A stretch of 64,000 nt of DNA from NCBI GenBank assembly GCA_000146465.1, contig CP001950.1. One strand, 5' to 3'. The position numbers and the translations under genes were made by a program. The notes under the pieces are model-generated. The model was not told the DNA's origin. It saw only the letters and a program-made list of their open reading frames with translations, and did no database searches. Shown one piece after another: positions 15,324 to 62,498 of this stretch. Every line of letters starts with the position of its first letter. Within the stretch, counting starts at the first letter, position 1.

Positions 15324-16286
15324 ATGAAGCTGAGACCAAGAAGAATAAAGAAGAGATGTTTAGTTTTACTGATTATTTTGTTTAATCTCCTACTGGTTCT
15401 TCTTGTGAAGCATAAAAACAAAATGAACATAGGAAACAAGGTGGATCTTGGTCGTTTGAAATGGTTTGGAACTGGTACAATAGTGGTGTCGGCGATGGAA
15501 ATGTTCCAAGACGTGGGGTTTTCCGATGCCATCTCGAAATCTGAGTTGATTTCCACAGACGTTCAAGGACAAGGAGACGTTGTGGATTCCATACTGAGCC
15601 GTGTAAACGTCGAGGTTAGGGAGATTCTACTCATAGATACAAGGAGACTTAGAGGCATGAACCGTACTGTTTTCCCAAGGTTTGAGAAAGAGAGGGCAAA
15701 CTACAGTCTTGGAATAGACTATATTGAAGAATTGGCCAAGGAATTTATCAGGAGAATAGACAATGGAAGAGTTAAGTACCCATTTGGTAGTAACACAGCA
15801 AGAGAATATGTAATGAGGATAAAGTCGTTTACCAAGAGGCATACCAAGGGAGAAGACGATAGCGAGATTATAAAGCTAGTAAACAAGGTGTTTCCAACCA
15901 TTGAGATATCATTCTACACATACATAATGATGGTTCTACTCAACATTCGAGAGATGATTGTTGAAGATTTTGATTCAATTAAGGAAATATTGAAGACAAG
16001 AAAGATATATAGCATCAGTAACGACAAGATAAATCAGCTTGGAGGAATGATCATGAGAGCCCGGGCTTTCAACGACGGAATACCCGAGTGGAATTTATGC
16101 AATGCATGCGATCAAGTCTTTTTTGAAGAAGATCGCGCCGATTTACAAAAGCTTACGTGTGATGATGTTATATGTAGGAGATGTTTAAAGCAATCCTTCC
16201 TGTATTCTGATGATGAGTTCTGCATAAAGTGCGGGACTGAATACGACATTTTACCTGGAAATCGCTTTAAAGATTTACTTGATTAG
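15324..16286 (+). CDS. Hypothetical membrane-anchored protein with a C-terminal RING-like zinc finger
   Basis: The N-terminal hydrophobic anchor is CLVLLIILFNLLLVLLV. The C-terminus carries Cys pairs CNACDQ...CDDVICRRC...CIKCG. It ends with TAG immediately before the next ATG, in the same frame. Confidence 0.45.
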   Translation: MKLRPRRIKKRCLVLLIILFNLLLVLLVKHKNKMNIGNKVDLGRLKWFGTGTIVVSAMEMFQDVGFSDAISKSELISTDVQGQGDVVDSILSRVNVEVREILLIDTRRLRGMNRTVFPRFEKERANYSLGIDYIEELAKEFIRRIDNGRVKYPFGSNTAREYVMRIKSFTKRHTKGEDDSEIIKLVNKVFPTIEISFYTYIMMVLLNIREMIVEDFDSIKEILKTRKIYSISNDKINQLGGMIMRARAFNDGIPEWNLCNACDQVFFEEDRADLQKLTCDDVICRRCLKQSFLYSDDEFCIKCGTEYDILPGNRFKDLLD

Positions 16287-29524: not shown

Positions 29525-30760
29525 TTATTTACTTGTGAATGGGAATTCGACAGGTTTTAGAATCAGGCCTATGAGTATTGCAAAAATGAAGATAGCAATA
29601 GGAAGCGTCATATGAAGGATATTGTATCTTCCGGACATTCTATGTACTCCAACAAAACCATCAAAAGAGGAGAAATAAACCGATTCGTTCATAAACCCTA
29701 CTCCCGTTATTGGAACATTGTAAACTTTTTTTCTCCCACTTAGAACACATTTGTTGAATAGGTAGATGTAACCATCTGCGGTTCCAACAACCGTCCACTG
29801 GCCTTCACACGACATTGTTGTGATTTTTGGGATGCTGTAGATCTTTTCGTGCACCTCCTGAAAGTACAGCTTGGAATCCTTTCCCTTTAAGTAATAAACA
29901 AGCATTTCATTGTTGTGAGCTATTCTCCCAATCTCCTTTTCATAGGAATACTTTTTGGAATTGTATACAAAAGTGTATCCTCCATCTTCGTAAACAATCT
30001 TATGGACTAATCCTCTAGTTATGAAAAATCCTTCCCAGTTGTTAGCTATGTCAGACTTTCCTTCCTCTCTCTTGAAAATAATCCTTCTATCCTTCCTGAA
30101 AGGTCTGTATGTATACTCTTCATGAGACTCATCATTGAGCAAGGATCCATTTACTTTTTTTCTTTTCCTTTCAGGTTTCAGCACCTCATCTAATGAATCT
30201 GGAGAACTTACCACATCATGGAATCCATACAGCTTTTTATCACTAATGATATATAAATCCTTGGCAAATACTTGGGAAGATATCTTTTTCTTTACTCTTT
30301 TGATAAGCGTGAGATTGCTGCCATCAAATATTAACAAGTAGAAGAATTCTTCCCCTAGGGCAGTAATATAAAGTTTCGAACAATCATCTTCTGTTTTGTT
30401 TTTTGTGTCTTTGTTATCTGGAACCAAGTCTTTACAACCTGAATTATCTTCCGAAGAGTCCTTATTGCTGGCACCTTCTATATCCTCTGAACTCCGAGCA
30501 GAGGAAGAAAGGCTTGCCTCATCATATTCATCCCATGACATATCATCCTCTCCTACCTGAAGAAATTCATCTTTGGTGTTGCAGACCGCTATATCCACAA
30601 TAATTTCGTCTGTTGAATAATAGGCCAGCTCTTTGAAGCGAAAACTCTCCAGAACCTTAACTCCATTGGACTTTCCAAATTCCTTTTCTCCCCCTCCTCC
30701 TCCTACAATAACAAATTCTCCCTTTACTTGCAATGTGAATACAGGAAAAGAAACCTTCAT
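29525..30760 (-). CDS. SEC12: Sec12/PREB-family guanine-nucleotide exchange factor for Sar1, a type II ER membrane WD protein
   Basis: The N-terminus, VFTLQVKGEFVIVGGGGGEKEFGKSNGVKVLESF, parallels human PREB [34 protein letters not shown]. A single C-terminal TM helix is present (LPIAIFIFAILIGLIL). Confidence 0.5.
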   Translation of the reverse strand: MKVSFPVFTLQVKGEFVIVGGGGGEKEFGKSNGVKVLESFRFKELAYYSTDEIIVDIAVCNTKDEFLQVGEDDMSWDEYDEASLSSSARSSEDIEGASNKDSSEDNSGCKDLVPDNKDTKNKTEDDCSKLYITALGEEFFYLLIFDGSNLTLIKRVKKKISSQVFAKDLYIISDKKLYGFHDVVSSPDSLDEVLKPERKRKKVNGSLLNDESHEEYTYRPFRKDRRIIFKREEGKSDIANNWEGFFITRGLVHKIVYEDGGYTFVYNSKKYSYEKEIGRIAHNNEMLVYYLKGKDSKLYFQEVHEKIYSIPKITTMSCEGQWTVVGTADGYIYLFNKCVLSGRKKVYNVPITGVGFMNESVYFSSFDGFVGVHRMSGRYNILHMTLPIAIFIFAILIGLILKPVEFPFTSK

Positions 30761-30817: not shown

Positions 30818-31633
30818 TCAGATCCCTAGAATACAGCTTCTGATCCTCTCTTTTATTGAGCTAAGGATGGGCCCATCTACCTTCCCATTCTGAATAGGAA
30901 TTTCAATAGCATTCCAGTTCCTCATATAAATACTGCTTGTCATCCCTCTTTTTACAAAGCAAAACGTCGGTATAGAGTTAAATATCTCTCCCACATCCTT
31001 TATATTCCATCTGCTTACTTGCCACTTGGTTCCATCAAGAAATATACATACAACCTTTTTCCAATCCTCAGACGTAAATCTTCCTACATCGTCCACTGCA
31101 ACAACTCCAAATCCTTCAATCTTCAGTTCTACCTTCTCGGCTTCACTGATGCTAATCTCATCGGAACATATTCCCTTCTCAAAGAACTCCTTAACGTTGC
31201 TTAGATTTACGGGAGAAGAAACCGATTGCGGAACTATGGCATAGTAGGTCACTGGTCTCCCTTCTTCCTCTTTCTTGCAAATGTTATTTAAATAGCTATA
31301 ATCCCGGAATCCAATGTATCGGAAGTCCGGTCCATCAATCTTGGCTTCAATAGATGCTTCCTTAAAGTTTTCAATCTCCTCTACAATAATCTTTTGGTCC
31401 GTATAATATATCTTTCCTATTCCACTTTCCTTGCACAACGTCATATACGCCGTGTACTTCTTGTCTTTGTTCAGTAGATAGAACAAAACCTGCTCAAATG
31501 TATACTCCTTGGTTTCTGTTCCTTTAAATTTGATGGTCTGTTTAGGGGAAATCTTTCTTCCCCCGATAGTTATTTCTTCGGGATTCATTTGGCATATGCT
31601 GGGATCCCTGAGTGCCCTCTTCAGTAGATCCAT
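30818..31633 (-). CDS. CDC73: Paf1-complex subunit Cdc73/parafibromin, shortened
   Basis: The N-terminal block EYTFEQVLFYLLNKD resembles the Cdc73 EYYTLDSILFLLNN. The C-terminal block WKKVVCIFLDGTKWQVSRWNIK...IFNSIPTFCF resembles the Cdc73 C-domain [21 protein letters not shown]...IF..I..FHLK. Confidence 0.5.
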   Translation of the reverse strand: MDLLKRALRDPSICQMNPEEITIGGRKISPKQTIKFKGTETKEYTFEQVLFYLLNKDKKYTAYMTLCKESGIGKIYYTDQKIIVEEIENFKEASIEAKIDGPDFRYIGFRDYSYLNNICKKEEEGRPVTYYAIVPQSVSSPVNLSNVKEFFEKGICSDEISISEAEKVELKIEGFGVVAVDDVGRFTSEDWKKVVCIFLDGTKWQVSRWNIKDVGEIFNSIPTFCFVKRGMTSSIYMRNWNAIEIPIQNGKVDGPILSSIKERIRSCILGI

Positions 31634-31754: not shown

Positions 31755-33410
31755 TCATGCCCTGTTTCTTAAACTTCTGTTTACAAAATAATCGTCCAGA
31801 ACTTCCCCATCAACAACCCCACGATCCTTTAGTTCTAAAACACGGCTGTGGAACATCTCTAGATTAAAGGGAGGATCTATAAACAGATTGCTGAGAAGCC
31901 TTACAAATGTAATGGCTTCCTTTTTATCCTGGGGAGTAAATGTAGGTAGAAAAGAGAGGTCAAAGCTGTATTTATGGACCATAAAGTATCTTATAAGGTC
32001 CAATGCCATAAACATTAGGCCGTTCTCAATCAGCTTTTCTATCTCTTCCTCAACCTTGCCATTGTCGGCTATCTTCGGCCTTTCAAGGTTATCAAGAATA
32101 TATGGATACAGATACCCATGATCGTCTTTGACTCTGTTCAACATATTCTTGATACCTTCTACATTAATTCTTGAATACGTTTTAAACTCTCTGGCCGAAG
32201 TAAAATTCTTCTTGATGAAATCGACGATATCATCTCGGAACTCATCCCGAAGCTTATTTTTACTTAGGAACTTCTCGGCAACTTCATAAACATTTTCATC
32301 ATTGTTGAATGAAAGGGTATAATACTTGTTTTCTAGCTCAACCTGGAATGTGTTGTCGTGAGGTTTGATTCCTTCTCCCTTACCGAGAAAAACCCATTCT
32401 CCATTAATCTCTTGATATACAGATCCATCAGTCACCCGGAACTTCTGTCCATCTGATATAAACTCTCCATCTTTTAATGGCGCTTCTTTGCTATTTCTAA
32501 TCTCTTCTAGAATCCTAGAGGCCTCGTCAGAGATATCTGAAGAGTACACATACAGCCTTCCATCACTTCCCCCAACATATACTCTACCTTTCCATCCAAG
32601 GACAGCCCAGCATGATGTTGTAGGCACTAGTATCTCCTGAACTAGCTTAAGATCTTCATTAAGTATTACAACTTTTCCATTCTCTCCTGCACATATAATC
32701 AGGTCACTATCTCCGTTTGTACAGGAAGATATAGTATACATAAAGTCTTTTGCAGAGTAATGCTTTAAAATCCTTCCGTCCAATGATATCTTGAGAATCA
32801 TCCCTTCATTGTCGACAGAAATAATGCTTTTATGTAAAAGAGCAACTCCTCGGACATATGAAAGGTTATAGTTAAACGTACAAGCCAGAGTCCCATTCTT
32901 AAAAACTCTTACCAACTTGTCGCTACAACCTGTTACAACTGTGTTTTCATTGACAAACTTAGCACTCCAGACAACTGCAGGATGTGGTATCTTCTGTACT
33001 ATAGTTACGTTCCCGTTAAGTATATGCTTTGTAGTCCAGATAATGGCTGAGCAATCCCATGAACTAGAAACAACAAGATCCCCTACTGTATCTAAACAGC
33101 ACACGTTGGAGGAATGCTCCTTTATCAATCTCATAGGCTCAACCTTCTGTTCTTCTTTCTGGGCCCCCAGTTCATCCATAGAATACATAACTATACACCC
33201 GTTCTGGCATCCGACAAATAAAAATCCGTTTCCAGTCGTGATACAATTGATATATCCCTGCCCAGGCTTAATTTCTGCCCAACAACCAAGTTCATAGCCA
33301 TAGATTCTTATCACTCCCTCCCGTCCTCCTGTTATAATCATCTCATCGTTTACAAAGAGCGCCTTAACATCGGAGTTGCTAATCTTTTCGATTTTCTCTA
33401 TTCCTATCAT
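31755..33410 (-). CDS. DOA1: Doa1/Ufd3/PLAA (WD40-PFU-PUL), a ubiquitin-binding Cdc48 cofactor
   Basis: An N-terminal WD40 propeller is followed by a PFU domain (KDGEFISDGQKFRVTDGSVYQEINGEWVFLGKG...YYTLSFNNDENVYEVAEKFL) and a C-terminal PUL/ARM-like region. The track start is a TTG, and the first ATG gives a start at 33410. Confidence 0.65.
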   Translation of the reverse strand: MIGIEKIEKISNSDVKALFVNDEMIITGGREGVIRIYGYELGCWAEIKPGQGYINCITTGNGFLFVGCQNGCIVMYSMDELGAQKEEQKVEPMRLIKEHSSNVCCLDTVGDLVVSSSWDCSAIIWTTKHILNGNVTIVQKIPHPAVVWSAKFVNENTVVTGCSDKLVRVFKNGTLACTFNYNLSYVRGVALLHKSIISVDNEGMILKISLDGRILKHYSAKDFMYTISSCTNGDSDLIICAGENGKVVILNEDLKLVQEILVPTTSCWAVLGWKGRVYVGGSDGRLYVYSSDISDEASRILEEIRNSKEAPLKDGEFISDGQKFRVTDGSVYQEINGEWVFLGKGEGIKPHDNTFQVELENKYYTLSFNNDENVYEVAEKFLSKNKLRDEFRDDIVDFIKKNFTSAREFKTYSRINVEGIKNMLNRVKDDHGYLYPYILDNLERPKIADNGKVEEEIEKLIENGLMFMALDLIRYFMVHKYSFDLSFLPTFTPQDKKEAITFVRLLSNLFIDPPFNLEMFHSRVLELKDRGVVDGEVLDDYFVNRSLRNRA

Positions 33411-33482
33411 CAACCAGGGTATAAAAAGGTATGTTTAACTAAAGATCATGCCTATTCCGTAAATGGAATCAGATTTTTAATC

Positions 33483-34874
33483 CTAGTCTTTTATCCCATG
33501 CTTCTTTTTATGCTTTTCACTATATTTGTAATCAAAAAATAACTCTTCATTCTTATCTATATCTCTACTGGCATAGAATCCGATTCGCCTGATCCCATTC
33601 ACAAGCAGAACAAGTGCATTTAGGTTAGAATTTTTCTTCGAATGATTTATAAATCTAGACTCGTTTCCTATGAACCTGGAGTCGATGACATAGAGAGGAA
33701 CTCCTTCCCTACTGTACAGATCAAACAAGTATGAACATCCTTTCAAATCATAGAAAGTCCCTCTTCTTTCTGCTTCCTCGTTACTTATTATCTCTCCCAC
33801 ATACTCAATGATAAACTTTCCCTTGGATATCTTTTCCTTGGCAAACAGGCCATATCCTTCTATTTTGCTAGACGACACATATATTGGCGACTTCTTACCC
33901 AACTGTATATCTCTGTTTCCGCACTGGTTGCATGAACACGTCTGAATACATTCTCTCATTGCTTGTCTACATCTACATTTATTGTCGCATGCCGAAGAGC
34001 ATCTACATCCTATGAAGAAGTTTTTGCATCCCGCACAAAGACAAGACATTTCACAGTTGGTCTTGTTAGAGATGCATACACATCCATTCTCTTTAGTACA
34101 GTTTCCAGAATGGTCGCAAGGTGTAAAAAAGACATTGAAATCAACATTGTTCTTGCTCTTGCTTTCTATCAAATACTTGTGACGTCCTGGCGGAATAGCA
34201 CAAGAATCTTTTATTTTTGTACAAGGAATGTATTTCTTATACCTAAAGTAGAAAAGCAGGGAAGCTATACATTCATACCCTTGAGACTCCATACAGGCCT
34301 CATAAAGGGCGTTATAAGCATTAAAGTCAAGCTCTTCCTTAGTGGATTCCTTGCATGTGATTTTCATTTTCTTGCATATATCTCCACAGATGTCTCTAGC
34401 CTCTACAAATGCATTTGTTGGATTCTTCTCAAAACCTACAGGCTTTATGCAAATTCCTTCTGTCTTGGAGTGCCATCTACATCCAAAAATAAAGCATACA
34501 TTACAAAAGATTCTTCTCATTATTCGAAGTCCATCATCTTTAACACATTCCTCACGGAAACTTGATCTGTCCCAAACATCCAACTTCTTAGGAAGTGTCC
34601 CTTTAACAACTTCCTTATCATATGAATAGCATTTCTCTATAAATCCCGTGTTCTTGAATTCTGTGAGATTTATAAATCCTGAGGCACCCGGGATATATGG
34701 AATGAATCTTAAAATAGGATCATCCTCTGTTTTTATGCTTGTATTAGTAAAGGTAAAGAAAGTACTTCGAGTTTTTGGTTCTATTCTAGGAATCACTATC
34801 TTCTTAACGGAGGGATGGAAGCCGTTGGGTCTTAGATGGTTTTCGGTTGTTGGATTAGTGTTATTGCTTATCAT
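33483..34874 (-). CDS. EZH: Enhancer-of-zeste-like histone-lysine methyltransferase (CXC + SET; PRC2 catalytic-subunit type)
   Basis: The SET domain is nearly collinear with EZH2: GYGLFAKEKISKGKFIIEYVGEIISNEEAERRG...SRFINHSKKNSNLNALVLLVNGIRRIGFYASRDIDKNEELFFDYKYS, against EZH2 ...[33 protein letters not shown]...[45 protein letters not shown]. The preceding CXC block, CRCRQAMRECIQTCSCNQCG, matches the EZH2 CPCYLAVRECDPDLCLTCG. The track start is a TTG, and the first ATG is at 34874. Confidence 0.65.
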   Translation of the reverse strand: MISNNTNPTTENHLRPNGFHPSVKKIVIPRIEPKTRSTFFTFTNTSIKTEDDPILRFIPYIPGASGFINLTEFKNTGFIEKCYSYDKEVVKGTLPKKLDVWDRSSFREECVKDDGLRIMRRIFCNVCFIFGCRWHSKTEGICIKPVGFEKNPTNAFVEARDICGDICKKMKITCKESTKEELDFNAYNALYEACMESQGYECIASLLFYFRYKKYIPCTKIKDSCAIPPGRHKYLIESKSKNNVDFNVFFTPCDHSGNCTKENGCVCISNKTNCEMSCLCAGCKNFFIGCRCSSACDNKCRCRQAMRECIQTCSCNQCGNRDIQLGKKSPIYVSSSKIEGYGLFAKEKISKGKFIIEYVGEIISNEEAERRGTFYDLKGCSYLFDLYSREGVPLYVIDSRFIGNESRFINHSKKNSNLNALVLLVNGIRRIGFYASRDIDKNEELFFDYKYSEKHKKKHGIKD

Positions 34875-35142
34875 CTTGGCCTCCAAAGCCCTTTTTTTCT
34901 TTTCAATCCTATATTTTTAAATCTTGGTACCTGGCTTGATGATGTCCTGCAAGGTAATTTGTTTGTGTTATCTCCAAGACCCATGGGAAACAAGAGACGG
35001 CCAAGCTTTGAACAGGAGTTTATTGACTCATTTGTAAGTGATGAAGTTATCAACTGGAAATTTGACCCAATTCTTCTCGATGGAGAGCTTAAGGCTCGTT
35101 TAAGCCAGGAATAGATATTAACTGCAAATTTTCCTCCCCAGA

Positions 35143-35538
35143 ATGCAAGTATCTACTTGGCCACTTCCTCCAAGATTCAAGAAGAAGGAACCGCCAAAAA
35201 TACCGTCCTCATACACAATCTTTGGTGTAGGATATAAGGTAGAAAACGGAGAGCCCACAAGCACTTCATTTTCTTCCGTAGAATTCGATAAAAGCAGACT
35301 CAAAGATCTTCTTAACCTTTCCTTTTCCACATTTGTTGAGCTGCTAACATTTCCTCTCGACCATCAAGAGCTTATAGAAACAATAGGTAGCATACATCTT
35401 GAAATTAACCAGATTCTCAACGGAGCTAAAAAGATGGAGGCTGTTTCTGAGATTAGAAGAATTAAGAATGATCATACAAGAAATAAAAACCGAATTGCCG
35501 AGGAGGTTAGAAGGGGAATATCCGACTTCAAGATATGA
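35143..35538 (+). CDS. Hypothetical small protein of 131 aa lying between the E(z)-like and EED-like genes; may include an upstream exon at 34939..35033 if the candidate intron is real
   Basis: ATG ORF in a 680-bp gap that is large by the standards of this locus. No family motif recognised. See the candidate-intron finding. Confidence 0.35.
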   Translation: MQVSTWPLPPRFKKKEPPKIPSSYTIFGVGYKVENGEPTSTSFSSVEFDKSRLKDLLNLSFSTFVELLTFPLDHQELIETIGSIHLEINQILNGAKKMEAVSEIRRIKNDHTRNKNRIAEEVRRGISDFKI

Positions 35539-35564
35539 GTTATGGAATCTCAATTCTTAGGATA

Positions 35565-36500
35565 TCAGGCAAGACTTAACACTCTAAAGAAAGAATCTTC
35601 AAAAAGAATAAACATTCTGTTTCTAATTACGCGGAAGTCCCGTATCTTTCCCTTCTTGGTTGATCTTAATATTGTTGATTGGGAAGTGAATCCAATATCA
35701 TTCATCTTGAACAGAATTATGTCCTGTGATTCTGTCACTGCCACTAGCATCCCATCGTCTATCTCGAATCCCCGCAATAGTTGGCCTTCAAACTTAACGC
35801 CTCCCACAAACTCGGTCCTTGATGTGGGTTCTACTTCCCCATATCTTGGAGAAATGATGTCGATTCTGCTTTCTCCAGAATAGAAAACCAGAAACTCTCT
35901 ATAGAACCGAACACATTGAATGGGAAATTTATGGATCCTTGGCGATAAATAAATGGGTGCTACACATTGAAACTTGTTCAAGGAGGAAGGAATCCTCCAA
36001 ACTCTTATTGAGCAGTCTGTTCCACCAGACGCCAGATACCTCAAGTCATCACTTACATCGATAGACAAGACATGGTCTCTATGGCCTGTGTAGCCTCCAA
36101 AGACACAGACACACTTTAGTTCCGAGACGTCCCACATCTTTATTGTTGTATCTTCACTACAGCTCAACAGATACTCATCCTTATATCTTTTTATCGAGAA
36201 AATTATCCCTCCATGGGCCTGAATATATCCAACAAATGTCCCTTTCGATAGATTCAGGACTTTTATGATTCCAAGACTTCCGCCGAGTGCTAATAAGACA
36301 TCATTCTGTCTTATAAGAAACTCACTGCATTGAAAGTTCTCGTCTGGATGCTCATCGAGAACTCTTTGGACCATCCTGAGATCGTCGGCATATGATATAA
36401 TCACAGAGGTTCTTTTTCCAACCAGCGATACTATCTCATATTCATCGCAGATACTCATAAATTCAAGATATGCATTGGGTATTTCTATTGACAAAGCCAT
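35565..36500 (-). CDS. EED: EED/ESC-like WD40 protein (PRC2 core-subunit type)
   Basis: AHGGIIFSIKRYKDEYLLSCSEDTTIKMWDVSELKCVCVFGGYTGHRDHVLSIDVSDDLRYLASGGTDCSIRVWRI parallels EED GHGNAINELKFHP...[61 protein letters not shown]. Start is ATG. Confidence 0.55.
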   Translation of the reverse strand: MALSIEIPNAYLEFMSICDEYEIVSLVGKRTSVIISYADDLRMVQRVLDEHPDENFQCSEFLIRQNDVLLALGGSLGIIKVLNLSKGTFVGYIQAHGGIIFSIKRYKDEYLLSCSEDTTIKMWDVSELKCVCVFGGYTGHRDHVLSIDVSDDLRYLASGGTDCSIRVWRIPSSLNKFQCVAPIYLSPRIHKFPIQCVRFYREFLVFYSGESRIDIISPRYGEVEPTSRTEFVGGVKFEGQLLRGFEIDDGMLVAVTESQDIILFKMNDIGFTSQSTILRSTKKGKIRDFRVIRNRMFILFEDSFFRVLSLA

Positions 36501-43169: not shown

Positions 43170-45314
43170 ATGAAAGGTTATAAGCGACAATCGAGGGAAT
43201 CGACTATTGTGAAGAAATTTCTGAAAGAACATCTGAACGAAGGAACTACAAAGTCTACATGCGAAAAGATATATCAGCTTTCACAGCGTGTGGCTAAAGC
43301 TAGAATGAGCAAAAGACTCCTTTCGGAGATCATAAAGGTATCTAAAGTTTTTGTAGATGATTATGCAGAAAAAACCCGGGGAATGAGCTCAAAAGATACA
43401 GGAAGATGTCTTTACTCGTTTGATTGTCTTTGGAGTAGAAGCATGAATCTCTTTGGGAAAGTGTTCTGTCCAATTATACGAACTAGAAGGAAGTTTATAG
43501 ACCGTTTATCTTCAAAGTTATTTATGCAATTTGTGAAGAACATCGAGGATAAGATAGTAAAATTTATAATAGACAATATAAGAGAGGAAATACAGAAAGT
43601 AGAAACTAATAGGAGAACAAGTAAACCTGAATCCAGTAGTTTGGAATCCTCTTCTAACAAAAAGCAGAAGCTAAGCCAAGACGAGCCTGGAAAATTGGGG
43701 GAGCTTAAGGAAAGGGACTTTGGTGTATTTGAATCGCTTTCCAGAAAGGAGAAAATTTCAACTTTAATCGGCATACTTCAAGGTAGGGGATGCTTCGATC
43801 TGTTTCTAGAAAGAGTTGTTGGGAGCTTAACTTCGGTCCTTGATGAAAAGATAGATAGGGAAGGTCTTGGGATTTTAGCAATAAAGAGACTTATTGACGA
43901 GCAGAGAAAAGCCGGGTATATGAAGGACTACTTCTATGCAGTTGAATCGAATCTGATGAGAAAAATAGTTATAAAATATACTAATGAGGAGATTTTCAAA
44001 ATGCTGGACAAAGAGGATGAAATGAGATTATGTATGGGATTTTTTTGTGCCTCCAACGAGGAGAAAAGGCTTATGGAGGCTTTGGATGTGTATTTCAGGA
44101 AAATAATGGGAAATCCTTCTATTGATGACTTTATTGGAAAATACTACTGGATCTACCTCAAGTTTAGAGAACTAGAAAATAGCAAGGATGGAGGATACGA
44201 AAGGATTATAGAAGGAATTAGAAACTGTAAGAAAGACATTCTAAAGTTAGATGCAGAGTGTGTTGTTGAGTGCGTATGCAGATGGACGGATTCGTTTCTA
44301 AGAGGAAAAATAATCATCCAGGAGAACACCATTGAAGGGATGGAAAGTCCAATTTTTATTCCAGGGAGCGAAAGGAAGGAAGTGATAAATGTAGAAAGAG
44401 TTTTAAAGAAAATAGGGATAGACTCTCTTCTTGAAGGTAATGGATGGAGAGAGTATCTTGTATTGAATATTTTCGATATGATTGGAGAAATGTTTCGTTT
44501 CTGCGATTACAAGGAGATGTTTGAAACGACATTACAAGGCAGATTGGGAAGTAGACTTGTCTCTGGATCGTCTATATCAATGGACTGGGAGATTCGACTA
44601 ATTGATAAGATTGATTCCGGTAGAAGCACCATAGACAAGATGAGATGCATGATAAAAGACTTTATGGAAACAGAACAATTCATGGGCCATGATATTCTGC
44701 TTCTTCGGGGATGTAAGTGGCCTAGATATGAAGAGACTATCCTTAGGATCCCAGATGTTGAGGAAGTCAAGAAAAGGTACAATCACGTGGTAAAAAACAA
44801 AAGAAAGATAATCAGATGGAACGATCTGTTATCATCCTGTGAAATTGAGTTTTTGGGACGTATGGTGAGAGTTACATTGCCTCAATACCTAATGATGAAG
44901 CTTTTGGTTGAAAAGGATAGGACGGCTGAGGATTTGAAGATTTGCAAATCCTGGGACAAGAATCTTGAAGTATTGGTTAAGAAAGGGTTGGTGAAGGTGG
45001 AAGGAAAAAGACATTTTTTGAACATGGATTATTGGAAAGGGGACTTTCCCATGGACTCGATGATTCCTGATATGTTCCCGTTGCTAGGACCGCAGAAAAT
45101 CATAAAGATGTTTGATGAATCTGAGTCTTATAAGGATCTTTTAGATTGTAAAATAATAAAGGAAATGAAAGCTAATAAGACACTGAGCAAAAGTGGTCTC
45201 AAAGAACTGCTAAATAAGACGTATCCACAGGAAATTCTCGATGAAAGAATAGACAGCTTGGCAAACCGAGAGTTTTTGAGTGTTGAGGGAGAGAATATAA
45301 AGTATGTTCCATGA
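43170..45314 (+). CDS. Cullin-family ubiquitin-ligase scaffold
   Basis: The C-terminal winged-helix and neddylation region, DCKIIKEMKANKTLSKSGLKELLNKTYPQEILDERIDSLANREFLSVEGENIKYVP, parallels the cullin AAIVRIMKMRKTL...[28 protein letters not shown]. The cullin-homology arrangement is IPDVEEVKKRYNHVVKNKRKIIRWNDLLSSCEIEF...TLPQYLMMKLL. The track start at 43134 is a TTG. The first ATG (M13) lies at 43170 by ORF arithmetic, but the printed sequence seems to put it at 43171, so the start is uncertain by 1 nt. Confidence 0.6.
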   Translation: MKGYKRQSRESTIVKKFLKEHLNEGTTKSTCEKIYQLSQRVAKARMSKRLLSEIIKVSKVFVDDYAEKTRGMSSKDTGRCLYSFDCLWSRSMNLFGKVFCPIIRTRRKFIDRLSSKLFMQFVKNIEDKIVKFIIDNIREEIQKVETNRRTSKPESSSLESSSNKKQKLSQDEPGKLGELKERDFGVFESLSRKEKISTLIGILQGRGCFDLFLERVVGSLTSVLDEKIDREGLGILAIKRLIDEQRKAGYMKDYFYAVESNLMRKIVIKYTNEEIFKMLDKEDEMRLCMGFFCASNEEKRLMEALDVYFRKIMGNPSIDDFIGKYYWIYLKFRELENSKDGGYERIIEGIRNCKKDILKLDAECVVECVCRWTDSFLRGKIIIQENTIEGMESPIFIPGSERKEVINVERVLKKIGIDSLLEGNGWREYLVLNIFDMIGEMFRFCDYKEMFETTLQGRLGSRLVSGSSISMDWEIRLIDKIDSGRSTIDKMRCMIKDFMETEQFMGHDILLLRGCKWPRYEETILRIPDVEEVKKRYNHVVKNKRKIIRWNDLLSSCEIEFLGRMVRVTLPQYLMMKLLVEKDRTAEDLKICKSWDKNLEVLVKKGLVKVEGKRHFLNMDYWKGDFPMDSMIPDMFPLLGPQKIIKMFDESESYKDLLDCKIIKEMKANKTLSKSGLKELLNKTYPQEILDERIDSLANREFLSVEGENIKYVP

Positions 45315-48559: not shown

Positions 48560-49750
48560 CTAGTTTTCCTCCTTCCTTCCAATTTTAATTTCAGGAAGAA
48601 CAAGTAAAGGACCTCCAACTCCTCTTCTTTTCAATTCCCAATATTCCAATACTTTCAAAAGATCTGGGAAGTTTCCTTCCTTTTGGGTATATGCTTTAAT
48701 CTTTGAAAGAATGGATGGTGTGGCAACCGGCTGTAGATTGCAGAGCTTTCTGAATAGCGTAACCTGAGGGCATGCCATTGGAGCCTTTTTTCGGATTATT
48801 GGAGGATTTCGTAACTTTTCATATCCAAAATACCTTATTTTGGTCACTTTTCTGTAGCCTAATTCATATGGACTTCTTTTCAAAGGACTATGGTCGATAC
48901 AATAAGATATTCTATTTTCCAAATCAAAGTAACATTTGTCTAGAGCACATGACACATGGTATTTCCTAGAACACATAAAATACGAGCAGCATATCACAGT
49001 TCCAACAGTTTTTTCACAGAAAGAACATCCGGATTCTTTGGTATAGGAGCTAACATCAATGGGGTCTTTTGATAATGGATGGCCAAACGAGAGAGATCTG
49101 TTGAACATAGCACACAAAACATGGCCCCATCTGTTGTCGGATGTCTGCTTGAAGATGCCGTCTGAAGAAGGGCAGAAAGAACACTCTTTTAGGTCCTTTC
49201 CATATATACATCCCTTGCACAACCAAAAATCACTCAGATCTTGTATTCCATAGCAGTTTTCATGCACACATATTCCACATCCTTGGCATACAAAAAGAGT
49301 TCCGGTGCGTTCCGATGCATGCCTTGTACAGATATCACAGAAGGAAGTGGGTTCTATAGGTTTTACGTGCCTGGATACTAAATCCTGCACGAATAGGAAC
49401 CATTCCTTTTCTAATCTGTCGATAACTAACTCAAAAACATCTTTGGAGATATCAATTCCCGATCTCTCCAAATAAAGTTGATCATAGCTGTCTAGTTTAT
49501 ACACGATAGACTCAAAGAAGTTTCCTTTTTGATTCCTTCTAGTTGTTTTCTTGCTATCCGATTCACTTTCTGATGCATAGGTGCTTTTTGAAATAATCTG
49601 ATGCATTTTCTCGATCTCCAGATTATGATATATCGATCTGTAATCACGTTCCTCCCTCGGAACGCCTCCAAGGCATTTGGAAGTAGACATTTTTGGGTAG
49701 TAAGATTCCCCATAAGGAATGGAAAATTTTTTTTCTCGGCACATAACCAT
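48560..49750 (-). CDS. PHD-zinc knuckle-PHD (PZP) protein of the BRPF/JADE/Nto1 family, a HAT-complex scaffold type
   Basis: PHD1 is CDICTRHASERTGTLFVCQGCGICVHENCYGIQ...WLCKGC. The extended PHD is CSFCPSSDGIFKQTSDNRWGHVLCAMF...CSFCEKTVGTVICCSYFMCSRKYHVSCA. The track start at 49771 is a GTG, and the first ATG is at 49750, or possibly 49744 or 49690. The 5' end overlaps the divergent Elp1 start. Confidence 0.5.
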   Translation of the reverse strand: MVMCREKKFSIPYGESYYPKMSTSKCLGGVPREERDYRSIYHNLEIEKMHQIISKSTYASESESDSKKTTRRNQKGNFFESIVYKLDSYDQLYLERSGIDISKDVFELVIDRLEKEWFLFVQDLVSRHVKPIEPTSFCDICTRHASERTGTLFVCQGCGICVHENCYGIQDLSDFWLCKGCIYGKDLKECSFCPSSDGIFKQTSDNRWGHVLCAMFNRSLSFGHPLSKDPIDVSSYTKESGCSFCEKTVGTVICCSYFMCSRKYHVSCALDKCYFDLENRISYCIDHSPLKRSPYELGYRKVTKIRYFGYEKLRNPPIIRKKAPMACPQVTLFRKLCNLQPVATPSILSKIKAYTQKEGNFPDLLKVLEYWELKRRGVGGPLLVLPEIKIGRKEEN

Positions 49751-53984: not shown

Positions 53985-55223
53985 CTAAATAAAGTCTATG
54001 GTGTTTCTGTCAAGTCTCTCTGTCTCCAACTCTAATCTATTTCGGAGAGCGCTCTCCTTATTCCTTTCATTCAATAATTCATTGTTCCTGATTTTCAGAA
54101 TATTATACATCCTCTCTAACTCTTCTATATTCTTTTTGATTTCTTGAGTCCTCGTCTCGTCTAGCTGGAGTTCTCTGTTGCCTATATCATACTCCTCATC
54201 ATATTTCTTGATTCTGTCCGAGAATATTTTCTCTTCATCCTCTAGAAGCGCCAGCTTAGACCTCTGGTCATCCATCATCTTCGAAAGTTTTAAAAGCTCA
54301 TTTCTAGATAGTCTTATAAGGGCCAATGTCCTTCCTCTTTGGATCTCAACTTCCTTTATGTTAGTTTGTAAGTTTCTTAGATGGTTCTTCTTTGTATGAA
54401 TCCTCGACATCATATTATCCTTCATTTTCTGCGTATCCTGTATCTTCTCAGTAAGCTGGTCTATGTCCTGAAGAAGCTTGTCAATGCTATTTTGCAGCAT
54501 GTTTTCTTTTTGCTTGCTCTGTGCCATCTTTAGAACAATAAATGACTTCTTTGCTCCCAGTTCGTCTGATTGATTAGTGTTTTCGCCCATTCCAAACCCC
54601 ATCCCATCTCCCAAGGGAGATCTAGTATATCTAGGGACCTCCATGAAGGAATCCCCACTCTCTCTAAACGACAATGGTATGTATTTGCTCTGCTCAGGCC
54701 TATATCCCGACAAAATATCTTTTGGGAGATAACCCTGTGTTCCAGACCCACTTCCATTAAACATCTGTTGATTACCTCGGTTAAATAGGCTTCTAATGTG
54801 CAATGGGTTGAGTAATGAACTTTCTTGGTAACTCATTCCCAACTCTGGGGTCGTATCTTCATCCATCGAGCTTGGTGTTGACCTTCCCATGTACTCAGGC
54901 TTGGAGGAGTTCAATTGTAGGCGATTTTCCTCGTCGTCTTTCTTACTTAAGCTATCCTTTCCCTTTCCAAATAGTTTATCTTCGCCTCGGTTTCCTTCAT
55001 CATATTTAGAAGGTATGTTCTCATTGTCTCCAACAACTCTTTTTATCCCCTTGGTGTTAGAAAGCAGCACACCATCTCTGCTGTTTTTTATAGTTCCTCC
55101 AAGAGCATTTATCACTTTTCTGGCCATGTCTGGGTCTTTGTTCGGTCTGTCAGTGACTCCAAGATCGTCTACAACAACTATTTTGGATAGACATACCTGA
55201 ATCAAAACTATTATTGCTATCAT
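53985..55223 (-). CDS. Hypothetical secreted or membrane-anchored protein with a low-complexity Gly/Met/Ser region and a C-terminal coiled coil
   Basis: The N-terminal hydrophobic signal is MIAIIVLIQVCLSKIVVV. The middle region is GDGMGFGMGENT. The C-terminal 180 aa are heptad-rich. No family motif recognised. Confidence 0.45.
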   Translation of the reverse strand: MIAIIVLIQVCLSKIVVVDDLGVTDRPNKDPDMARKVINALGGTIKNSRDGVLLSNTKGIKRVVGDNENIPSKYDEGNRGEDKLFGKGKDSLSKKDDEENRLQLNSSKPEYMGRSTPSSMDEDTTPELGMSYQESSLLNPLHIRSLFNRGNQQMFNGSGSGTQGYLPKDILSGYRPEQSKYIPLSFRESGDSFMEVPRYTRSPLGDGMGFGMGENTNQSDELGAKKSFIVLKMAQSKQKENMLQNSIDKLLQDIDQLTEKIQDTQKMKDNMMSRIHTKKNHLRNLQTNIKEVEIQRGRTLALIRLSRNELLKLSKMMDDQRSKLALLEDEEKIFSDRIKKYDEEYDIGNRELQLDETRTQEIKKNIEELERMYNILKIRNNELLNERNKESALRNRLELETERLDRNTIDFI

Positions 55224-55363: not shown

Positions 55364-58003
55364 ATGAGAAAGACAGACCTAGAAGATATTCGAAGAGTTT
55401 ATGAAAAGTATGGGGAGGTTCTTGACGTAGATAAAATAAAGAACGGAGCAAAACATATTTTCAAATATGTTATGGATATTCCTGGATCTTTGCTTGACTA
55501 TCCAAAAGTAAGGCATCTTCGTTTCTTGGCAAAAGAAAAGATCAGCCAGATTGTAAGCGAGATAAGAAGTCAGCATAATGAAGGAGACATAGATTCAAAA
55601 AGAACATTGGAGTGGATTTCAGCCATTAAAAATATTAGAAAGGTCCACTCTGCAATTGTAGGATATGAGTCTGCTCGTATAGCATACTGGAGAAAGATCA
55701 GCGTGATATGTGCTAGAGAATTGAAAAGAGGGCTTTCCAAGACATCCAGAACCAATCCTATACTTAAGTCAAAGAAAATATACAAAGAACTATTTGGACA
55801 CATAAAGAAAACCGAAAGAAGCATGAAGGACAAGTCGAAGAGAGCAGAGAAGGAGGAAATGGAAAGGAAGAAGAAGGAGATGGAAGAAAAAGAGGAACTT
55901 CGGCAGAAAAGAAAGTTTGAGTATCTCCTGAGCCAGACAGAACTTTTTTCTCATTTCATATTGAAGAAGAGTAAATGCGATGTTTCAAATACAGAAGGAG
56001 AAGGGACTGAAGAATATAATAGCATGAAGGGATACAAGGCAGCCATGCTTCAAAAGGAAAAGGTAAAAGAGTTTGAAATGGGCAAGCAAGGAAAGAAATT
56101 CAAGAGCGGAGAAGAAGTTGGAGAAGTAGCATCTCGATATGTATCTCAGCCAAGTATCTTAAAGTGTGTTCTGAAGGAGTATCAATTGAAAGGATTAAAC
56201 TGGCTTGTTAGTCTGTACGATAAAGGAATCAATGGAATCCTTGCAGATGATATGGGCCTTGGAAAAACAGTCCAATCGATTTCGCTGTTAGCTTATCTTT
56301 ATGAGACAGAGGAGATCCCGGGGCCATTCCTTGTTGTAACCATTTCTTCAACACTCGACAACTGGGCTCAGGAATTTTCAAGATTCCTTCCTAGCTTTAA
56401 GGTATGCCGTTTTTCAGGATCTCCAAGTGAAAGAAAGGAGCTGAAGAAGCAATTCAAGAATTCGGACGTTGTTATTACTACATACCAAACAGCAGTTAGC
56501 GATGAGAAGATGTTGAAAAAGATCAAATGGCAGTATATGATTCTTGACGAAGCACAAGCCATCAAAAGTAGTATGTCGAGGAGGTGGAAAACTCTTCTGA
56601 GTTTCAAGGCAAGGAATAGGCTTCTTTTGACAGGAACACCGATACAAAACTCTATGCAAGAGTTATGGGCTCTTCTCCATTTTATAATGCCTACTTTGTT
56701 TGACTCTCTTAGTGAGTTCAGTGACTGGTTTAGCAAGGAGATAGAAACTTCGGCAACTATGAAAAAGACTGTTGATGAAAAGTCTTTACAAAGACTTCAT
56801 ACTATTCTAAAGCCATTTATGCTCCGAAGACACAAATCCGATGTTATTCATGAACTAGGGCAAAAGACGCAAATTGATCTATATTGCAACCTGAGCTATA
56901 GGCAAAGAGTACTATATAAGGAAATAACTAAATCTTGCTCAAGTATGGAGATGGAGAATCTGCTTATGCAATTGAAGAAGGTTTGCAACCATCCAGATCT
57001 GTTCAAGAAATTGGAGCCGACTTGTGGATTGAGCCTTGAAATTAGTGATGGAGTAGGCGATACTATTTCGTTTGGTAGAAGTAAGCTAGACATAAAAATT
57101 CCCAGTCTTATCGCAAAGGATGCACTTGAGGTGTTCCATAGAAGGGAACAGGAATTAATTGAAAGAATCAATGCACTGGAGAAGATTGCTTATGGAAGGG
57201 GATTCTGGGGATGGTATTTAGAGAACAGCTTAGACTTCAAATATAAGGGCCGTATTTTTAGAAGTGTTAAAGAGGTTGGTAAATCTATATTGAGGAATTT
57301 CGAGAATTTAGATTCCAACAAGTTATTAGAGAGCCTGAAAAGATTAATGAATGAGGAAATGTACTGCTTAAAAAGATATGCTTGCTGCATAAGTCCGGTT
57401 GTTGCTACAGTACCTAGGTTGATTTCTAATGAAGTGGAGCTCCCGGGTATATATTTGGAAGATGTGCACATTCCACTTAACACAACCATCCACGTCCCTC
57501 CACTCAATACTTTCATTAGCGACAGCGGAAAAATGATAATTTTGGATGAATTATTACCGAGACTTAAAGCTGAGGGCCATAGATTATTGATATACTTCCA
57601 AATGACACGGATGATAGACCTTATAGAAGATTATCTTGTGAAGAAGGGATACACATACCTGAGACTGGATGGGAGTCTGAAAGCTTCGGCCCGGGCGGAC
57701 GTGATCCGAGATTGGCAAACAAATGACAAATTTATTTTTCTATTAAGTACCCGTGCTGGAGGACTAGGTATTAATTTAACTGCTGCAGATACAGTTATTT
57801 TCTACGACAGCGATTGGAATCCCACTGCTGATCAACAAGCAATGGATAGAGCACATAGACTGGGGCAAACAAGAGATGTAACGGTGTATAGGCTTATTAC
57901 AAGGGGAACGGTTGAGGAAAAGGTTCTAGAAAGTGCCAACAGAAAAGACGAGATACAGAAAATGGTTATTCATGGAAACATATTTGAAGGAGAGAACTTT
58001 TGA
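55364..58003 (+). CDS. INO80: INO80 chromatin-remodelling ATPase (Snf2 family with split ATPase insertion)
   Basis: [67 protein letters not shown]...[12 protein letters not shown] is nearly collinear with human INO80 [67 protein letters not shown]...[12 protein letters not shown]. A long insertion of about 200 aa lies between the RecA lobes. The N-terminal K/E-rich stretch is DBINO/HSA-like. Confidence 0.75.
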   Translation: [879 protein letters not shown]

Positions 58004-58179: not shown

Positions 58180-59385
58180 ATGGAATTCTTGGACAGGTTA
58201 ATTCTTGGATCCAGAACTCCAAGATATGCAGACGAAGCTCTTTTTCCTTCAAGGACTTACAAAAAACCTATGTGTAATAGAAAACATTGCAATACCTCAT
58301 GTACTTCTAGAGTGCTCGAAGAATTTGAATTCTGGGCTTATTTTCTTTCTGAAAAGGAGCCTAACAGAAGAGAGGTAAGAAAGAAAATTCATACGATGAG
58401 CAAAGACTTGAGATTTTCAATTTGGATCAAATGTGTTGGATCTCGGGAAAAGTTTATAAGGATGAAGGAGATAGGACTTTCTAATACGAAGGAAGCCCGA
58501 GATGTTGAAAGCAAAGAAGATGGGAATAGGAAGTTGGACGATAAGGGTTTGGTAAAGTTCATATTGGACATGTGTAGAGATGCGGAAGGAAATAACCAAG
58601 AAGCTATATTCAATATTCTAAAGAATTTAGAAAGAGACTTTTCTTCAATATCTAATAAAAAGCTCCTTGCATTGACCATAATGCACATTCTGGAGCTTCC
58701 ATATGCCTCCCCACAAACTACATATCGCTTTATTCATTCCTTAATGGAATCTCACAACTTCTGTAGTGTATTCTCAGGATTCAATGAGTCTGAACTAGAT
58801 AATGGAATGGATCAAGATGATGAGAATAGCGTCCATTCGGCATTTTGGAAGTTCATCATTTCTGAGAATGCTTTGGTGTTTGACAGAATAATAGATCTCT
58901 TAGTTTGTTATGAGGGTGCGAATATAGCGTCTGTTCCCACATTTCTTAAGAAGCAGACCGGAGATAATGATGTTCAGAAGTGGGTTGAATTCATTTCTGT
59001 GAGATCCAATCTCGACAAGCTAGGAAGTGTTTTCGACAGTGAGAGGTTAGAAGGTCCTACTGAGGTGGAAGACAGAGAAGAGACATACTTTGACTTTTTA
59101 GTCATCCAGAACGAGACGATAAAGGCCCAAGAAATGATGAAAATAGAAACCAATGAAAAGTTGAATTCTCTTAAAGAAGAGAGAGATGAGCTTTATGCAC
59201 AAAAGGTCAATCTTATGGAAGCATGTTCTTCCTTGGAGTCGGATCTCAAGGAATATCAAAAAGAATACGTTAAGAAAGTAGAAGAGATGCTCCATAGTGT
59301 TGAAGATAAGTGCGAGAAGTATGAAAAAGAAAATATGGAGCTTAAGGCAAAAGTGGATGAAAAAGAACAAGTGAAAGATTTGTAA
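58180..59385 (+). CDS. Hypothetical protein of 401 aa with a C-terminal coiled coil
   Basis: ATG ORF. The C-terminal 100 aa are heptad and K/E-rich. No family motif recognised. Confidence 0.4.
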   Translation: MEFLDRLILGSRTPRYADEALFPSRTYKKPMCNRKHCNTSCTSRVLEEFEFWAYFLSEKEPNRREVRKKIHTMSKDLRFSIWIKCVGSREKFIRMKEIGLSNTKEARDVESKEDGNRKLDDKGLVKFILDMCRDAEGNNQEAIFNILKNLERDFSSISNKKLLALTIMHILELPYASPQTTYRFIHSLMESHNFCSVFSGFNESELDNGMDQDDENSVHSAFWKFIISENALVFDRIIDLLVCYEGANIASVPTFLKKQTGDNDVQKWVEFISVRSNLDKLGSVFDSERLEGPTEVEDREETYFDFLVIQNETIKAQEMMKIETNEKLNSLKEERDELYAQKVNLMEACSSLESDLKEYQKEYVKKVEEMLHSVEDKCEKYEKENMELKAKVDEKEQVKDL

Positions 59386-62400: not shown

Positions 62401-62498
62401 ATCTTAATGTTGAGTTCCGGGAAAAAAGAAGCAATATTAAGGATATCGATGCAGGAGTAGCCCATAAGTTCCTCGATGAAGACCTAGGGGAAAGATAA
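59436..62498 (+). CDS. SMC3: Cohesin subunit SMC3
   Basis: The N-terminal Walker A block is IKQIRLKNFKSFKDETLVEFTENVNIIVGRNGSGKSS, resembling Smc3 IKQVIIQGFRSY...NVIVGRNGSGKSN. The C-terminal signature and Walker B region, LSGGQKAVVALSLIFSMQRVNPSPLYVFDEIDANLDAQ...FIITTFRKELL...YLNVEFREKRSNI, parallels Smc3 [38 protein letters not shown]...FITTTFRPELL...FYGVKFRNKVSHI. The true start may be the second Met at 59454. Confidence 0.7.
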   Translation: MIPLSLMHIKQIRLKNFKSFKDETLVEFTENVNIIVGRNGSGKSSIVSAIRFVLCGEKYNCESRMELIHEGSRASEEEASVEIVFDSGSPESLGKGFSIKRVVDAKKDEYMLDNKTISRDELGGLLQGHGFATSSPYFIVLQEEISELAVLSDRRRYELIKDVAGVSEYEKDRENSMQTLEETKQSENKIELLLERIEEKLRGFENDKKEAELCLELEKEKRRLEYGYIEREVGEINEEICKIENLGSNNLEESSEENEDYGCEIREVESKLERLGRRRKELHVDEKYKDKESEIENEIKNIEKKRNDLLGSLEIEKKTLKSLKRNEMETFVRSGYIKYLIVFLETLGNREVSSEEIEISKRALKEKIEKLKDFNNLDHSGKFEEKRNIEELIERRKHLWREERRLKLSEESIGGIVKSQEGRLIAMGNIGLDVYKQIKNEKGVLGYVYDLISIPNELANAFEAVVGNALFNIVVESEDVASNVLKKMKDLRFRVTFMPLNRIEYKEENEIEDSNVISLTSQLKCNQQYKPLLRYITKNFYLCPDLKQALHLSKKYGINVVTLSGEVVAREGTITGGYERRNMVFQEYKRICKESRKIKGEMIKVQHELGKINKEIEEVKMHKECGSDESRYYESLKSSVLFLQEKIKILEEVVKEKLDGNGINGKLRKLREEEKDLKLKGIWIGGEIKKVGMRIEEAEIGVRNLNEGVGRLREELSKSSMYREAKEIEKEILELKDKKRAVKEMMFNEENMGLFAKPKKINVEVENLVRRKHMLINKRNELCERIGISDFRNLERLFPDKKKEDIMNEIVRINERIRGLSVVNRVAVSQWESYIEQKNSIRKRLEELKDDKRHISEFIAELDSRKEGAMGKAMSVVEEGFSEFYSRLTEGGKAELYSYESSIGIKVGKDVGTSLLSGGQKAVVALSLIFSMQRVNPSPLYVFDEIDANLDAQSRQKVSMLIKEMSERNGSQFIITTFRKELLNCGDKYLNVEFREKRSNIKDIDAGVAHKFLDEDLGER

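Follow-up and report, generated by a model that had tools for sequence, protein, structure and literature searches.

Linked E(z)- and EED-type genes in the microsporidian Encephalitozoon intestinalis

The E(z)-EED locus of chromosome IX

We analysed a stretch of 64,000 nucleotides (hereafter the window; GenBank assembly GCA_000146465.1, contig CP001950.1) from chromosome IX of the microsporidian Encephalitozoon intestinalis ATCC 50506. A preliminary description of this DNA, made from the sequence alone, had proposed that it carries side by side the genes of two core partners of Polycomb repressive complex 2 (PRC2), an E(z)-like SET-domain histone methyltransferase and an EED-like WD40 protein, with a small open reading frame (ORF) between them. 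All three ORFs exist exactly at the positions and on the strands given there (Table 1), and their products are 100% identical to proteins of this strain. The stop codon of the EED-type gene precedes the E(z) start by 690 bp, both genes being on the minus strand, in agreement with the reported spacing of 0.7 kb. The small ORF is antisense to both genes and convergent with EED, leaving a gap of 26 bp to the EED stop codon. A micro-ORF separates it from E(z). Because of these two intervening genes, E(z) and EED share no promoter in Encephalitozoon. The compactness of the genome was also correctly noted: about 44 genes occupy the 64 kb, with a coding share of 91.5% and a G+C content of 35-43%.

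Table 1 Features of the E(z)-EED locus, with positions in the window
Feature	Position	Strand	Basis
E(z)/EZH-type histone-lysine methyltransferase, 463 aa from ATG; GPK93_09g17040 in the telomere-to-telomere (T2T) annotation	33483..34874	-	Pfam SET and PDB EZH2 matches
SET domain, aa 340-450	33525..33857	-	Pfam coordinates; residue-by-residue EZH2 alignment
CXC cysteine-rich domain, aa ~249-325	33900..34130	-	Colinear alignment with EZH2 520-610
E(z)-specific zinc motif 'FCNVCFIFGCRWH...C..C', aa 107-168	34371..34556	-	Secondary HMMER stretch; equivalent to EZH2 269-330 (264-328 with the profile)
N-terminal motif 'KKIVIPRIEP...TEDDPILRFIPYIPG', aa 24-62	34689..34805	-	Resembles the EZH2 beta-addition motif/SET-activation loop ('VIPLKT...VEDETVLHNIPYMGD')
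Out-of-frame remnant of the ancestral E(z) N-terminus, 'MGLGDNTNKLPCRTSSSQVPRFKNIGLKRKKGLWRPR*'	34871..34984	-	Orthologue comparison
A7 run (A_AAA_AAA in the upstream frame)	34892..34898	-	Read from sequence
Micro-ORF between E(z) and Med7, 43 codons (MGNKRRPSFEQEFIDSFVSDEVINWKFDPILLDGELKARLSQE)	34983..35114	+	Orthologous gene in locus L007
Med7-like ORF Eint_091780, 131 aa	35143..35538	+	Weak Pfam/PDB profile matches, UniRef name
EED/ESC-type seven-bladed WD40 protein, 311 aa; annotated 'WD40 domain-binding protein'	35565..36500	-	Profile, hhalign, fold search

The methyltransferase belongs to the E(z) family

The 463-residue protein, identical to the E. intestinalis 'SET domain-containing protein', matches the Pfam SET model with an E-value of 1.2e-24. 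Compared as a single sequence with the PDB sequences, it is closest to EZH2 and EZH1 (1e-38 over CXC and SET). SUV39H2 follows at 5e-25, and G9a, Clr4, ASH1L and MLL rank below it. A profile of 10 orthologues gives EZH2 at 2.5e-58, Chaetomium Ezh2 at 4e-42, SUV39H2 at 1.9e-31 and Clr4 at 6e-24. EZH2, EZH1 and C. thermophilum Ezh2 precede every other SET family in the PDB search, and EZH2 is separated from the next family by 13 orders of magnitude with the single sequence and by more than 25 with the profile. The closest relatives are E(z) proteins rather than members of the Set1, Set2 or SUV39 subfamilies. Among the orthologues, those from E. hellem, Trachipleistophora, Gurleya, Binucleata and Pseudoloma are named EZH1 or EZH2.

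Three stretches of the protein are colinear with EZH2 in the HMMER profile alignment: an activation-loop-like motif, a zinc motif and the CXC-SET region (8e-56). The succession of CXC and SET noted in the preliminary description follows EZH2 closely, NHS and ELFFDYKYS aligning residue for residue with 'NHS...ELFFDYRYS'. Residues Y358, F384, N410, H411, Y449 and Y451, invariant in the 10 orthologues, correspond to the catalytic and pocket residues Y641, F667, N688, H689, Y726 and Y728 of EZH2. The C-terminus is reached 12 residues beyond the FDYKY motif. Across the same orthologues, the CXC region shows 16 invariant cysteines together with H255; the Pfam CXC model did not match the ORF, though the region aligns to EZH2. 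The zinc motif (FCxxCxxxxCxxH), whose counterpart in EZH2 is the region joining the two SANT-like domains, was detected with a conditional E-value of 6e-4 with the single sequence and 1e-5 with the profile. Its residues F123, C124, C127, C132, W134 and H135 are invariant across the 10 orthologues. The Pfam scan of this ORF (E<=0.1) returned SET and a weak PR domain only, with no Pre-SET, post-SET, chromodomain or SANT match. On these comparisons, we assign the protein to E(z)/EZH by orthology; its catalytic residues are intact, and methyltransferase activity is predicted.

The WD40 protein is the EED orthologue

In a single-sequence search, generic WD40 proteins outscore EED by summing repeat matches, and EED matches as one long stretch. 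The PDB was also searched with a profile of 13 sequences. EED was matched at 7e-40 (140 bits) in one colinear stretch, from profile positions 25-268 to EED residues 34-313, and no protein of known function scores better. The few entries placed above it, a bacterial 'WD-40 repeat protein' and some designed repeat proteins, match the same two-blade segment 6-7 times. Chaetomium EED was found with the same profile at 2.3e-30. Alignment with human EED by hhalign (human sequence identical to PDB 6C23 chain L) gave a probability of 99.8 and an E-value of 8e-29 over 243 columns. The block regarded in the preliminary description as typical of EED, 'VFGGYTGHRDHVLSIDVS..LASGGTDCSIRVWRI', does align with a 32-residue segment of the human protein.

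The AlphaFold2 (AF2) model of the 311-residue protein has a mean predicted local distance difference test score (pLDDT) of 90.5 and a predicted template modelling score (pTM) of 0.90. When it was compared with the PDB using Foldseek, the top 43 matches were all human EED (E ~1e-21, template modelling (TM) score 0.86-0.88). Chaetomium EED (6e-16) and Lis1 (~1e-15) come next; Lis1, the next family, is 5 orders of magnitude worse. Among proteins of known function, EED ranks first by profile, by profile-profile comparison and by fold, ahead of RbAp48, Swd3 and WDR5. Some relatives are named 'polycomb protein EED' (JGI annotation, Astathelohania contejeani), and family members also occur in Ordospora and in Anncaliia, the latter, like Astathelohania, a more distant microsporidian. 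An exhaustive HMMER search of 1.84 billion representatives with the EED alignment was dominated by giant multi-WD40 proteins through 10-25 repeated matches. It gave six full-length colinear matches only, microsporidian wherever named, and is otherwise uninformative on orthology. Judged by profile and predicted fold, the WD40 protein is an EED orthologue.

N-terminal region of E(z)

The IVIPRIEP motif close to the N-terminus is strongly conserved among E(z) orthologues. From its sequence, the 'KKIVIPRIEP' segment may be named an activation loop. Within the activation-loop-like stretch, 'TEDDPVLRFIPY' aligns with 'VEDETVLHNIPY' of EZH2 (profile positions 82-101 to EZH2 116-135); the stretch alone is not significant and is colinear with the zinc motif and the CXC-SET region.

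The E. romaleae, E. hellem and E. cuniculi-like orthologues of E(z) start in frame with 'MG..NK..' about 37 residues earlier than the E. intestinalis ORF. At the corresponding place, E. intestinalis has a run of seven adenines. Slippage by -1 at this run, or an additional A in the mRNA, would bring the upstream MG start into frame with the main ORF and yield a protein of about 500 residues; the frame-restored sequence is similar to the E. hellem and E. romaleae proteins. A second assembly (GCA_051312815.1) has the identical run, so that the frame break is probably not a sequencing error. The same 463-residue product is called on 5 contigs. The first 60 residues of E(z) are poorly conserved even among intact orthologues.

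Conservation of the linkage in microsporidia

The preliminary description regarded physical linkage of the two subunits as unusual. It is real, and it is kept in the Encephalitozoon/Ordospora and Nosema/Vairimorpha group. In an Encephalitozoon-like locus, L007, with 47% identity in E(z), the gene order is that of the window: V-ATPase a, GHMP kinase, EED, Med7, the micro-ORF, E(z), PFU-WD40 and CDC73. In a metagenomic relative (L008, 43% identical), E(z) and Arv1 point in the same direction and EED faces them. In Vairimorpha bombi and the Nosema-like locus L013, EED and E(z) are divergent, and none of the flanking genes is that of the window; in V. bombi the two are 98 bp apart. In all three orientations, the pair stays within one gene of each other. 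We estimate at ~0.3% the chance of finding two given genes within three slots among ~2,075 proteins (protein count from PMC10158259). The pair is linked throughout one major clade in three arrangements, and not across the phylum.

The 6-kb contig of Hamiltosporidium (L011), which ends ~30 bp past E(z) and shows no EED, is too short to judge linkage. Two E(z) neighbours of Vavraia and Trachipleistophora (130 and 365 residues) were tried as Med7 and EED equivalents and rejected (hhalign probability 1.4%, BLASTP E 1.7).

Another gene, encoding a PFU/WD40 protein (Doa1/PLAA-like), directly adjoins E(z) in the window (31755-33413, -), in L007 (7676-9364), in L008 (4227-5879) and in a further locus, L012 (2821-4581).

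Genes between E(z) and EED

The small ORF had been left unassigned, with the question of whether it encodes a third PRC2 subunit. It matches the Pfam Med7 model at 9e-4 (19.9 bits, below the 25.8 cut-off). Its best profile match in the PDB is C. thermophilum Med7 (1.5e-3), mammalian Med7 being also among the matches. Its L007 orthologue gives an independent weak Med7 match and its UniRef name is that of a Mediator subunit. On these matches, the protein is probably a divergent and very short (131 residues) Med7, and therefore not a PRC2 subunit.

The micro-ORF has a counterpart of 38 codons at the same place in L007 (5824-5940, -), with the common pattern MGNK..SFEQE.IDSFV.DEV.NW.FDPI. The two are ~70% identical, so the micro-ORF is better conserved than E(z) (47%). 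No Pfam model matched it. Its ATG in E. intestinalis lies in a CCATGG palindrome shared with the ancestral E(z) ATG of the opposite strand, and its antisense translation accounts for the N-terminal extensions wrongly included in certain gene models of E(z) (P0003, P0005). Two ideas about the micro-ORF were discarded. An intron joining it to Med7 (GTAAGT...TTAAC...AG upstream of Med7) was rejected because the frame is kept with neither of the two candidate acceptors checked, and Med7 already starts at a conserved 'VS.WP.PP' N-terminus. Identification as a miniature Sem1/DSS1 found no support in Pfam.

Other genes of the window

Several other genes of the window belong to chromatin or transcription. 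Cdc73 is encoded at 30818-31633 (-), a BRPF/JADE-like PHD-finger protein at 48560-49750 (-), INO80 (SNF2 and DBINO) at 55364-58003 (+) and an SMC protein at 59436-62498 (+). A weak Cullin match at 43170-45314 (+) is listed as the 'Cul4' candidate 09g17130 (PMC10158259). A PHD zf-HC5HC2H gene was also seen near E(z) in an unrelated locus, L009. A DUF1686 protein is encoded at 5712-7379 (+) within an otherwise housekeeping gene block; DUF1686 corresponds to the 'InterC' multigene family, illustrated as a family of alpha-helical transmembrane proteins (PMC10158259).

Four ORFs of 320-412 residues gave no significant Pfam match: 15324-16286 (+), 29525-30760 (-), 53985-55223 (-) and 58180-59385 (+). 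No VEFS box, the domain sought as a mark of SUZ12, was found in these four, in a sequence search that could miss a highly divergent SUZ12-like protein. RbAp46/48 (RBBP4) is not encoded in the window.

Chromatin components and earlier annotation

An RBBP4 homologue is listed for all three Encephalitozoon species in Table 1 of the 2023 T2T study (PMC10158259). The study also lists one HP1/Pc-like chromodomain protein. Histone H3 of the sister species E. cuniculi reads ARTKQSARKTTGGKAPRKQLSAKSARKGVSPA, with both K9 (ARKT) and K27 (SARKG) in ARK contexts.

In the same T2T study, GPK93_09g17040 appears as 'Clr4/EZH2', and heterochromatin is attributed to methylation of H3 lysine 9 (H3K9me) by a Clr4-Cul4-Rik1-Dos1-like complex (PMC10158259). 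The text of the paper makes no mention of EED, PRC2, Polycomb or H3K27. For this gene, its own supplement gives a PANTHER E(Z) match of 3.9e-67 and Drosophila E(z) as best SwissProt hit (PMC10158259). A survey of fungal SET-domain proteins reports E(z)-type genes in some Microsporidia and, in its Table S1, counts one SET gene in E. cuniculi, left unclassified (PMC9692433). The large phylogenetic survey of PRC2 by Sharaf et al. does not cover Microsporidia in its main text or in the supplementary files searched. In the literature searched, no paper discusses PRC2 or trimethylated H3 lysine 27 (H3K27me3) of the parasite itself. Microsporidian E(z) and EED are already recognised in some database annotations, and the literature searched overlooks the pair or misfiles it as Clr4.

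Interpretation

We consider it probable that the two ORFs are reduced E(z) and EED orthologues of PRC2 and that their linkage is inherited microsynteny. The comparisons above establish the orthology and the domains of the two proteins, the integrity of the catalytic residues and the conservation of the linkage, and they bear out the PRC2-type gene pair of the preliminary description as far as orthology and linkage are concerned. From these results we infer the formation of a complex, its substrate and its biological role. The N-terminal segment of E(z) (IVIPRIEP...FIPYIPG) would wrap the EED propeller, as in EZH2. The two proteins would be joined by the RbAp48/RBBP4 homologue encoded elsewhere and, probably, by an unrecognised SUZ12-like partner. 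Such a complex would methylate an 'ARK' lysine of the H3 tail, most likely K27, and the outcome would be facultative heterochromatin. The near-adjacency of the genes would have survived several local rearrangements in the Encephalitozoon/Ordospora and Nosema/Vairimorpha group, and may aid co-expression where neighbouring genes share transcripts or promoters. The sizes of the proteins, 463 and 311 residues, reflect a shrinkage usual for microsporidian proteins.

Several observations weigh against this interpretation. Mammalian EZH2 is inactive without SUZ12, and no VEFS box was found by Pfam in the ~44 main ORFs of the window. PRC2s of Cryptococcus, C. elegans and Paramecium are also without an obvious VEFS protein. 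'SUZ12' is absent from the T2T supplementary files as searched (PMC10158259), and H3K27me3 data for any microsporidian were not found in the literature searched. The AF2 model of E(z), computed from a 10-sequence alignment, is too poor for a fold search (pLDDT 41.8, pTM 0.32). The ancestral start of E. intestinalis E(z) ('MGLGDNTNK...') lies in another frame than the 463-residue ORF, and the broken region is the one occupied in EZH2 by the EED-binding helix. The aromatic cage by which EED binds trimethyl-lysine also seems to differ. In MAFFT and hhalign sequence alignments, W364 and Y365 of human EED stand opposite Leu-Leu or a gap, in columns that vary across the family. Y148 stands opposite Gln57, or Phe56 after a one-residue shift, and F97 opposite Leu12 by strand register. 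The cage seems, on balance, not to be conserved, so that the read-write feedback typical of PRC2 may be absent. Finally, EED is not found within 8 kb on either side of E(z) in Vavraia, Trachipleistophora, Gurleya, Binucleata and L009, nor in the 10 kb of L012, where E(z) lies ~0.8 kb from a contig end.

Could the SET protein be a functional Clr4 of the SUV39 type, acting with Cul4, Rik1, Dos1 and Pip1 analogues to write H3K9me for HP1/Swi6 constitutive heterochromatin, next to an unrelated WD40 protein? H3K9 of E. cuniculi stands in an ARKT context, and E(z) homologues of ciliates act on K9 as well as on K27, which counts on the side of H3K9. Sharaf et al. also cite substrates other than K27 (Frapporti 2019). 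If E. cuniculi has a single SET gene (PMC9692433), any H3K9 methylation must come from this enzyme, and the T2T study joins to its 'Clr4/EZH2' listing an inferred H3K9me, a Swi6/HP1-like chromodomain protein and Cul4, Rik1 and Pip1 analogues (PMC10158259). We nevertheless find a Clr4 function very unlikely. With the profile, the matches to SUV39H2 (1.9e-31) and Clr4 (6e-24) are far weaker than that to EZH2 (2.5e-58); Pfam detects no Pre-SET, post-SET or chromodomain, whereas motifs found only in E(z) are present; the neighbour is specifically EED-like and its linkage is conserved; and the T2T supplement itself puts E(z) as the best match (PMC10158259). Decay of the E. intestinalis gene, with a frame break marking a protein that no longer binds EED properly, appears even less probable. 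Two assemblies show the break relative to the E. hellem, E. romaleae and E. cuniculi-like orthologues, the same product is called on 5 contigs, and the sirtuin Hst4 has been lost in E. intestinalis alone (PMC10158259). However, the remaining 463 codons are intact, with all catalytic residues and zinc ligands; the 60 N-terminal residues vary even in intact orthologues; the conserved IVIPRIEP motif lies downstream of the break; and the A_AAA_AAA run could permit a -1 slippage restoring the full protein.

More weight must be given to the possibility that the orthology is right and the adjacency functionally meaningless, a chance neighbourhood frozen by the slow change of gene order in compact genomes. 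General synteny inertia is a serious alternative account of the adjacency, and we rate it only slightly below an even chance. The genomes listed above in which EED is not close to E(z) agree with it, as does the interposition of Med7 and the micro-ORF in Encephalitozoon, which leaves no common promoter. The PFU-WD40/Doa1 gene beside E(z) is likewise kept in L007, L008 and L012. Its retention in L012, where no EED is nearby, indicates a strong general microsynteny and tempers the significance of the EED linkage. In the Nosema/Vairimorpha-type loci, though, all flanking genes differ and EED and E(z) are still neighbours. The three orientations all keep the pair within one gene, for a prior chance of only ~0.3%. 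Inherited microsynteny of a PRC2-type pair is the reading that we retain.

A bolder proposal, which we regard as rather unlikely, can be formulated. A minimal PRC2 devoid of SUZ12 and of the aromatic cage would be the sole SET histone methyltransferase of Encephalitozoon. It would write all repressive methylation of the H3 tail, on K27 and possibly K9, for the single HP1/Pc-like reader and silence subtelomeres and ribosomal DNA (rDNA), the linkage being selected for stoichiometric co-expression. Subtelomeres and rDNA are heterochromatin-like in the T2T study (PMC10158259). If true, no natural PRC2 would be smaller, and a relative of the fungi would have a heterochromatin system run by a single enzyme. 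More generally, the T2T heterochromatin model is built on this gene as an H3K9 Clr4 (PMC10158259). Should the only SET enzyme be an E(z) with a neighbouring EED, that model would move towards a system of Polycomb type or of dual specificity. Inhibitors of EZH2 and of EED are available, so that the pair may also offer a lead for repurposing drugs against this opportunistic pathogen of humans.

Comparison with known systems

With S. pombe Clr4 and SUV39, the E. intestinalis protein shares the character of a SET-domain lysine methyltransferase and, possibly, the position of sole histone-tail SET enzyme for heterochromatin. It differs from them by the absence of a chromodomain, of the pre-SET Zn3Cys9 cluster and of the post-SET motif, and its similarity to them is far weaker than to E(z). 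The Ezl1 complexes of Paramecium and Tetrahymena likewise have a divergent E(z)-EED core with a VEFS partner unrecognisable or absent, and ciliate E(z) may be a dual K9/K27 enzyme. Unlike the ciliates, Encephalitozoon has no Dicer or Argonaute (PMC10158259), and there is no evidence here for guidance by small RNAs.

Among fungi, relatives of the microsporidia, PRC2 is represented by SET-7/EED/SUZ12 of Neurospora and by the crystal structures of Ezh2-Eed-Suz12 from Chaetomium thermophilum, two subunits of which were matched in our searches (ctEzh2 4e-42, ctEED 2.3e-30). Cryptococcus, with Ezh2-Eed1, has a PRC2 able to work without a recognisable SUZ12. The microsporidian proteins are closer to animal EZH2 and EED than to the Chaetomium proteins and much smaller than either.

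An RBBP4 homologue is encoded in the Encephalitozoon genome (PMC10158259), as in human and Drosophila, where PRC2 also contains this subunit. E. intestinalis E(z) has the same CXC-SET module as human and Drosophila PRC2, with identical catalytic residues, the same zinc motif and a similar N-terminal motif before 'IPY', and the propeller fold of EED is shared (TM 0.86-0.88). VEFS/SUZ12, by contrast, was not detected in the window searched, and the E. intestinalis genes are physically linked. E(z) is reduced to 463 residues from 746 in human, without recognisable SANT1 or N-terminal helices, and EED to 311 from ~365 for the human propeller, without the N-terminal tail and apparently without a conserved cage. 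To our knowledge, E. intestinalis E(z) and EED would be among the smallest known. This makes the two proteins attractive for establishing what a PRC2 minimally requires in structure, and whether SUZ12 and the EED aromatic cage can be dispensed with.

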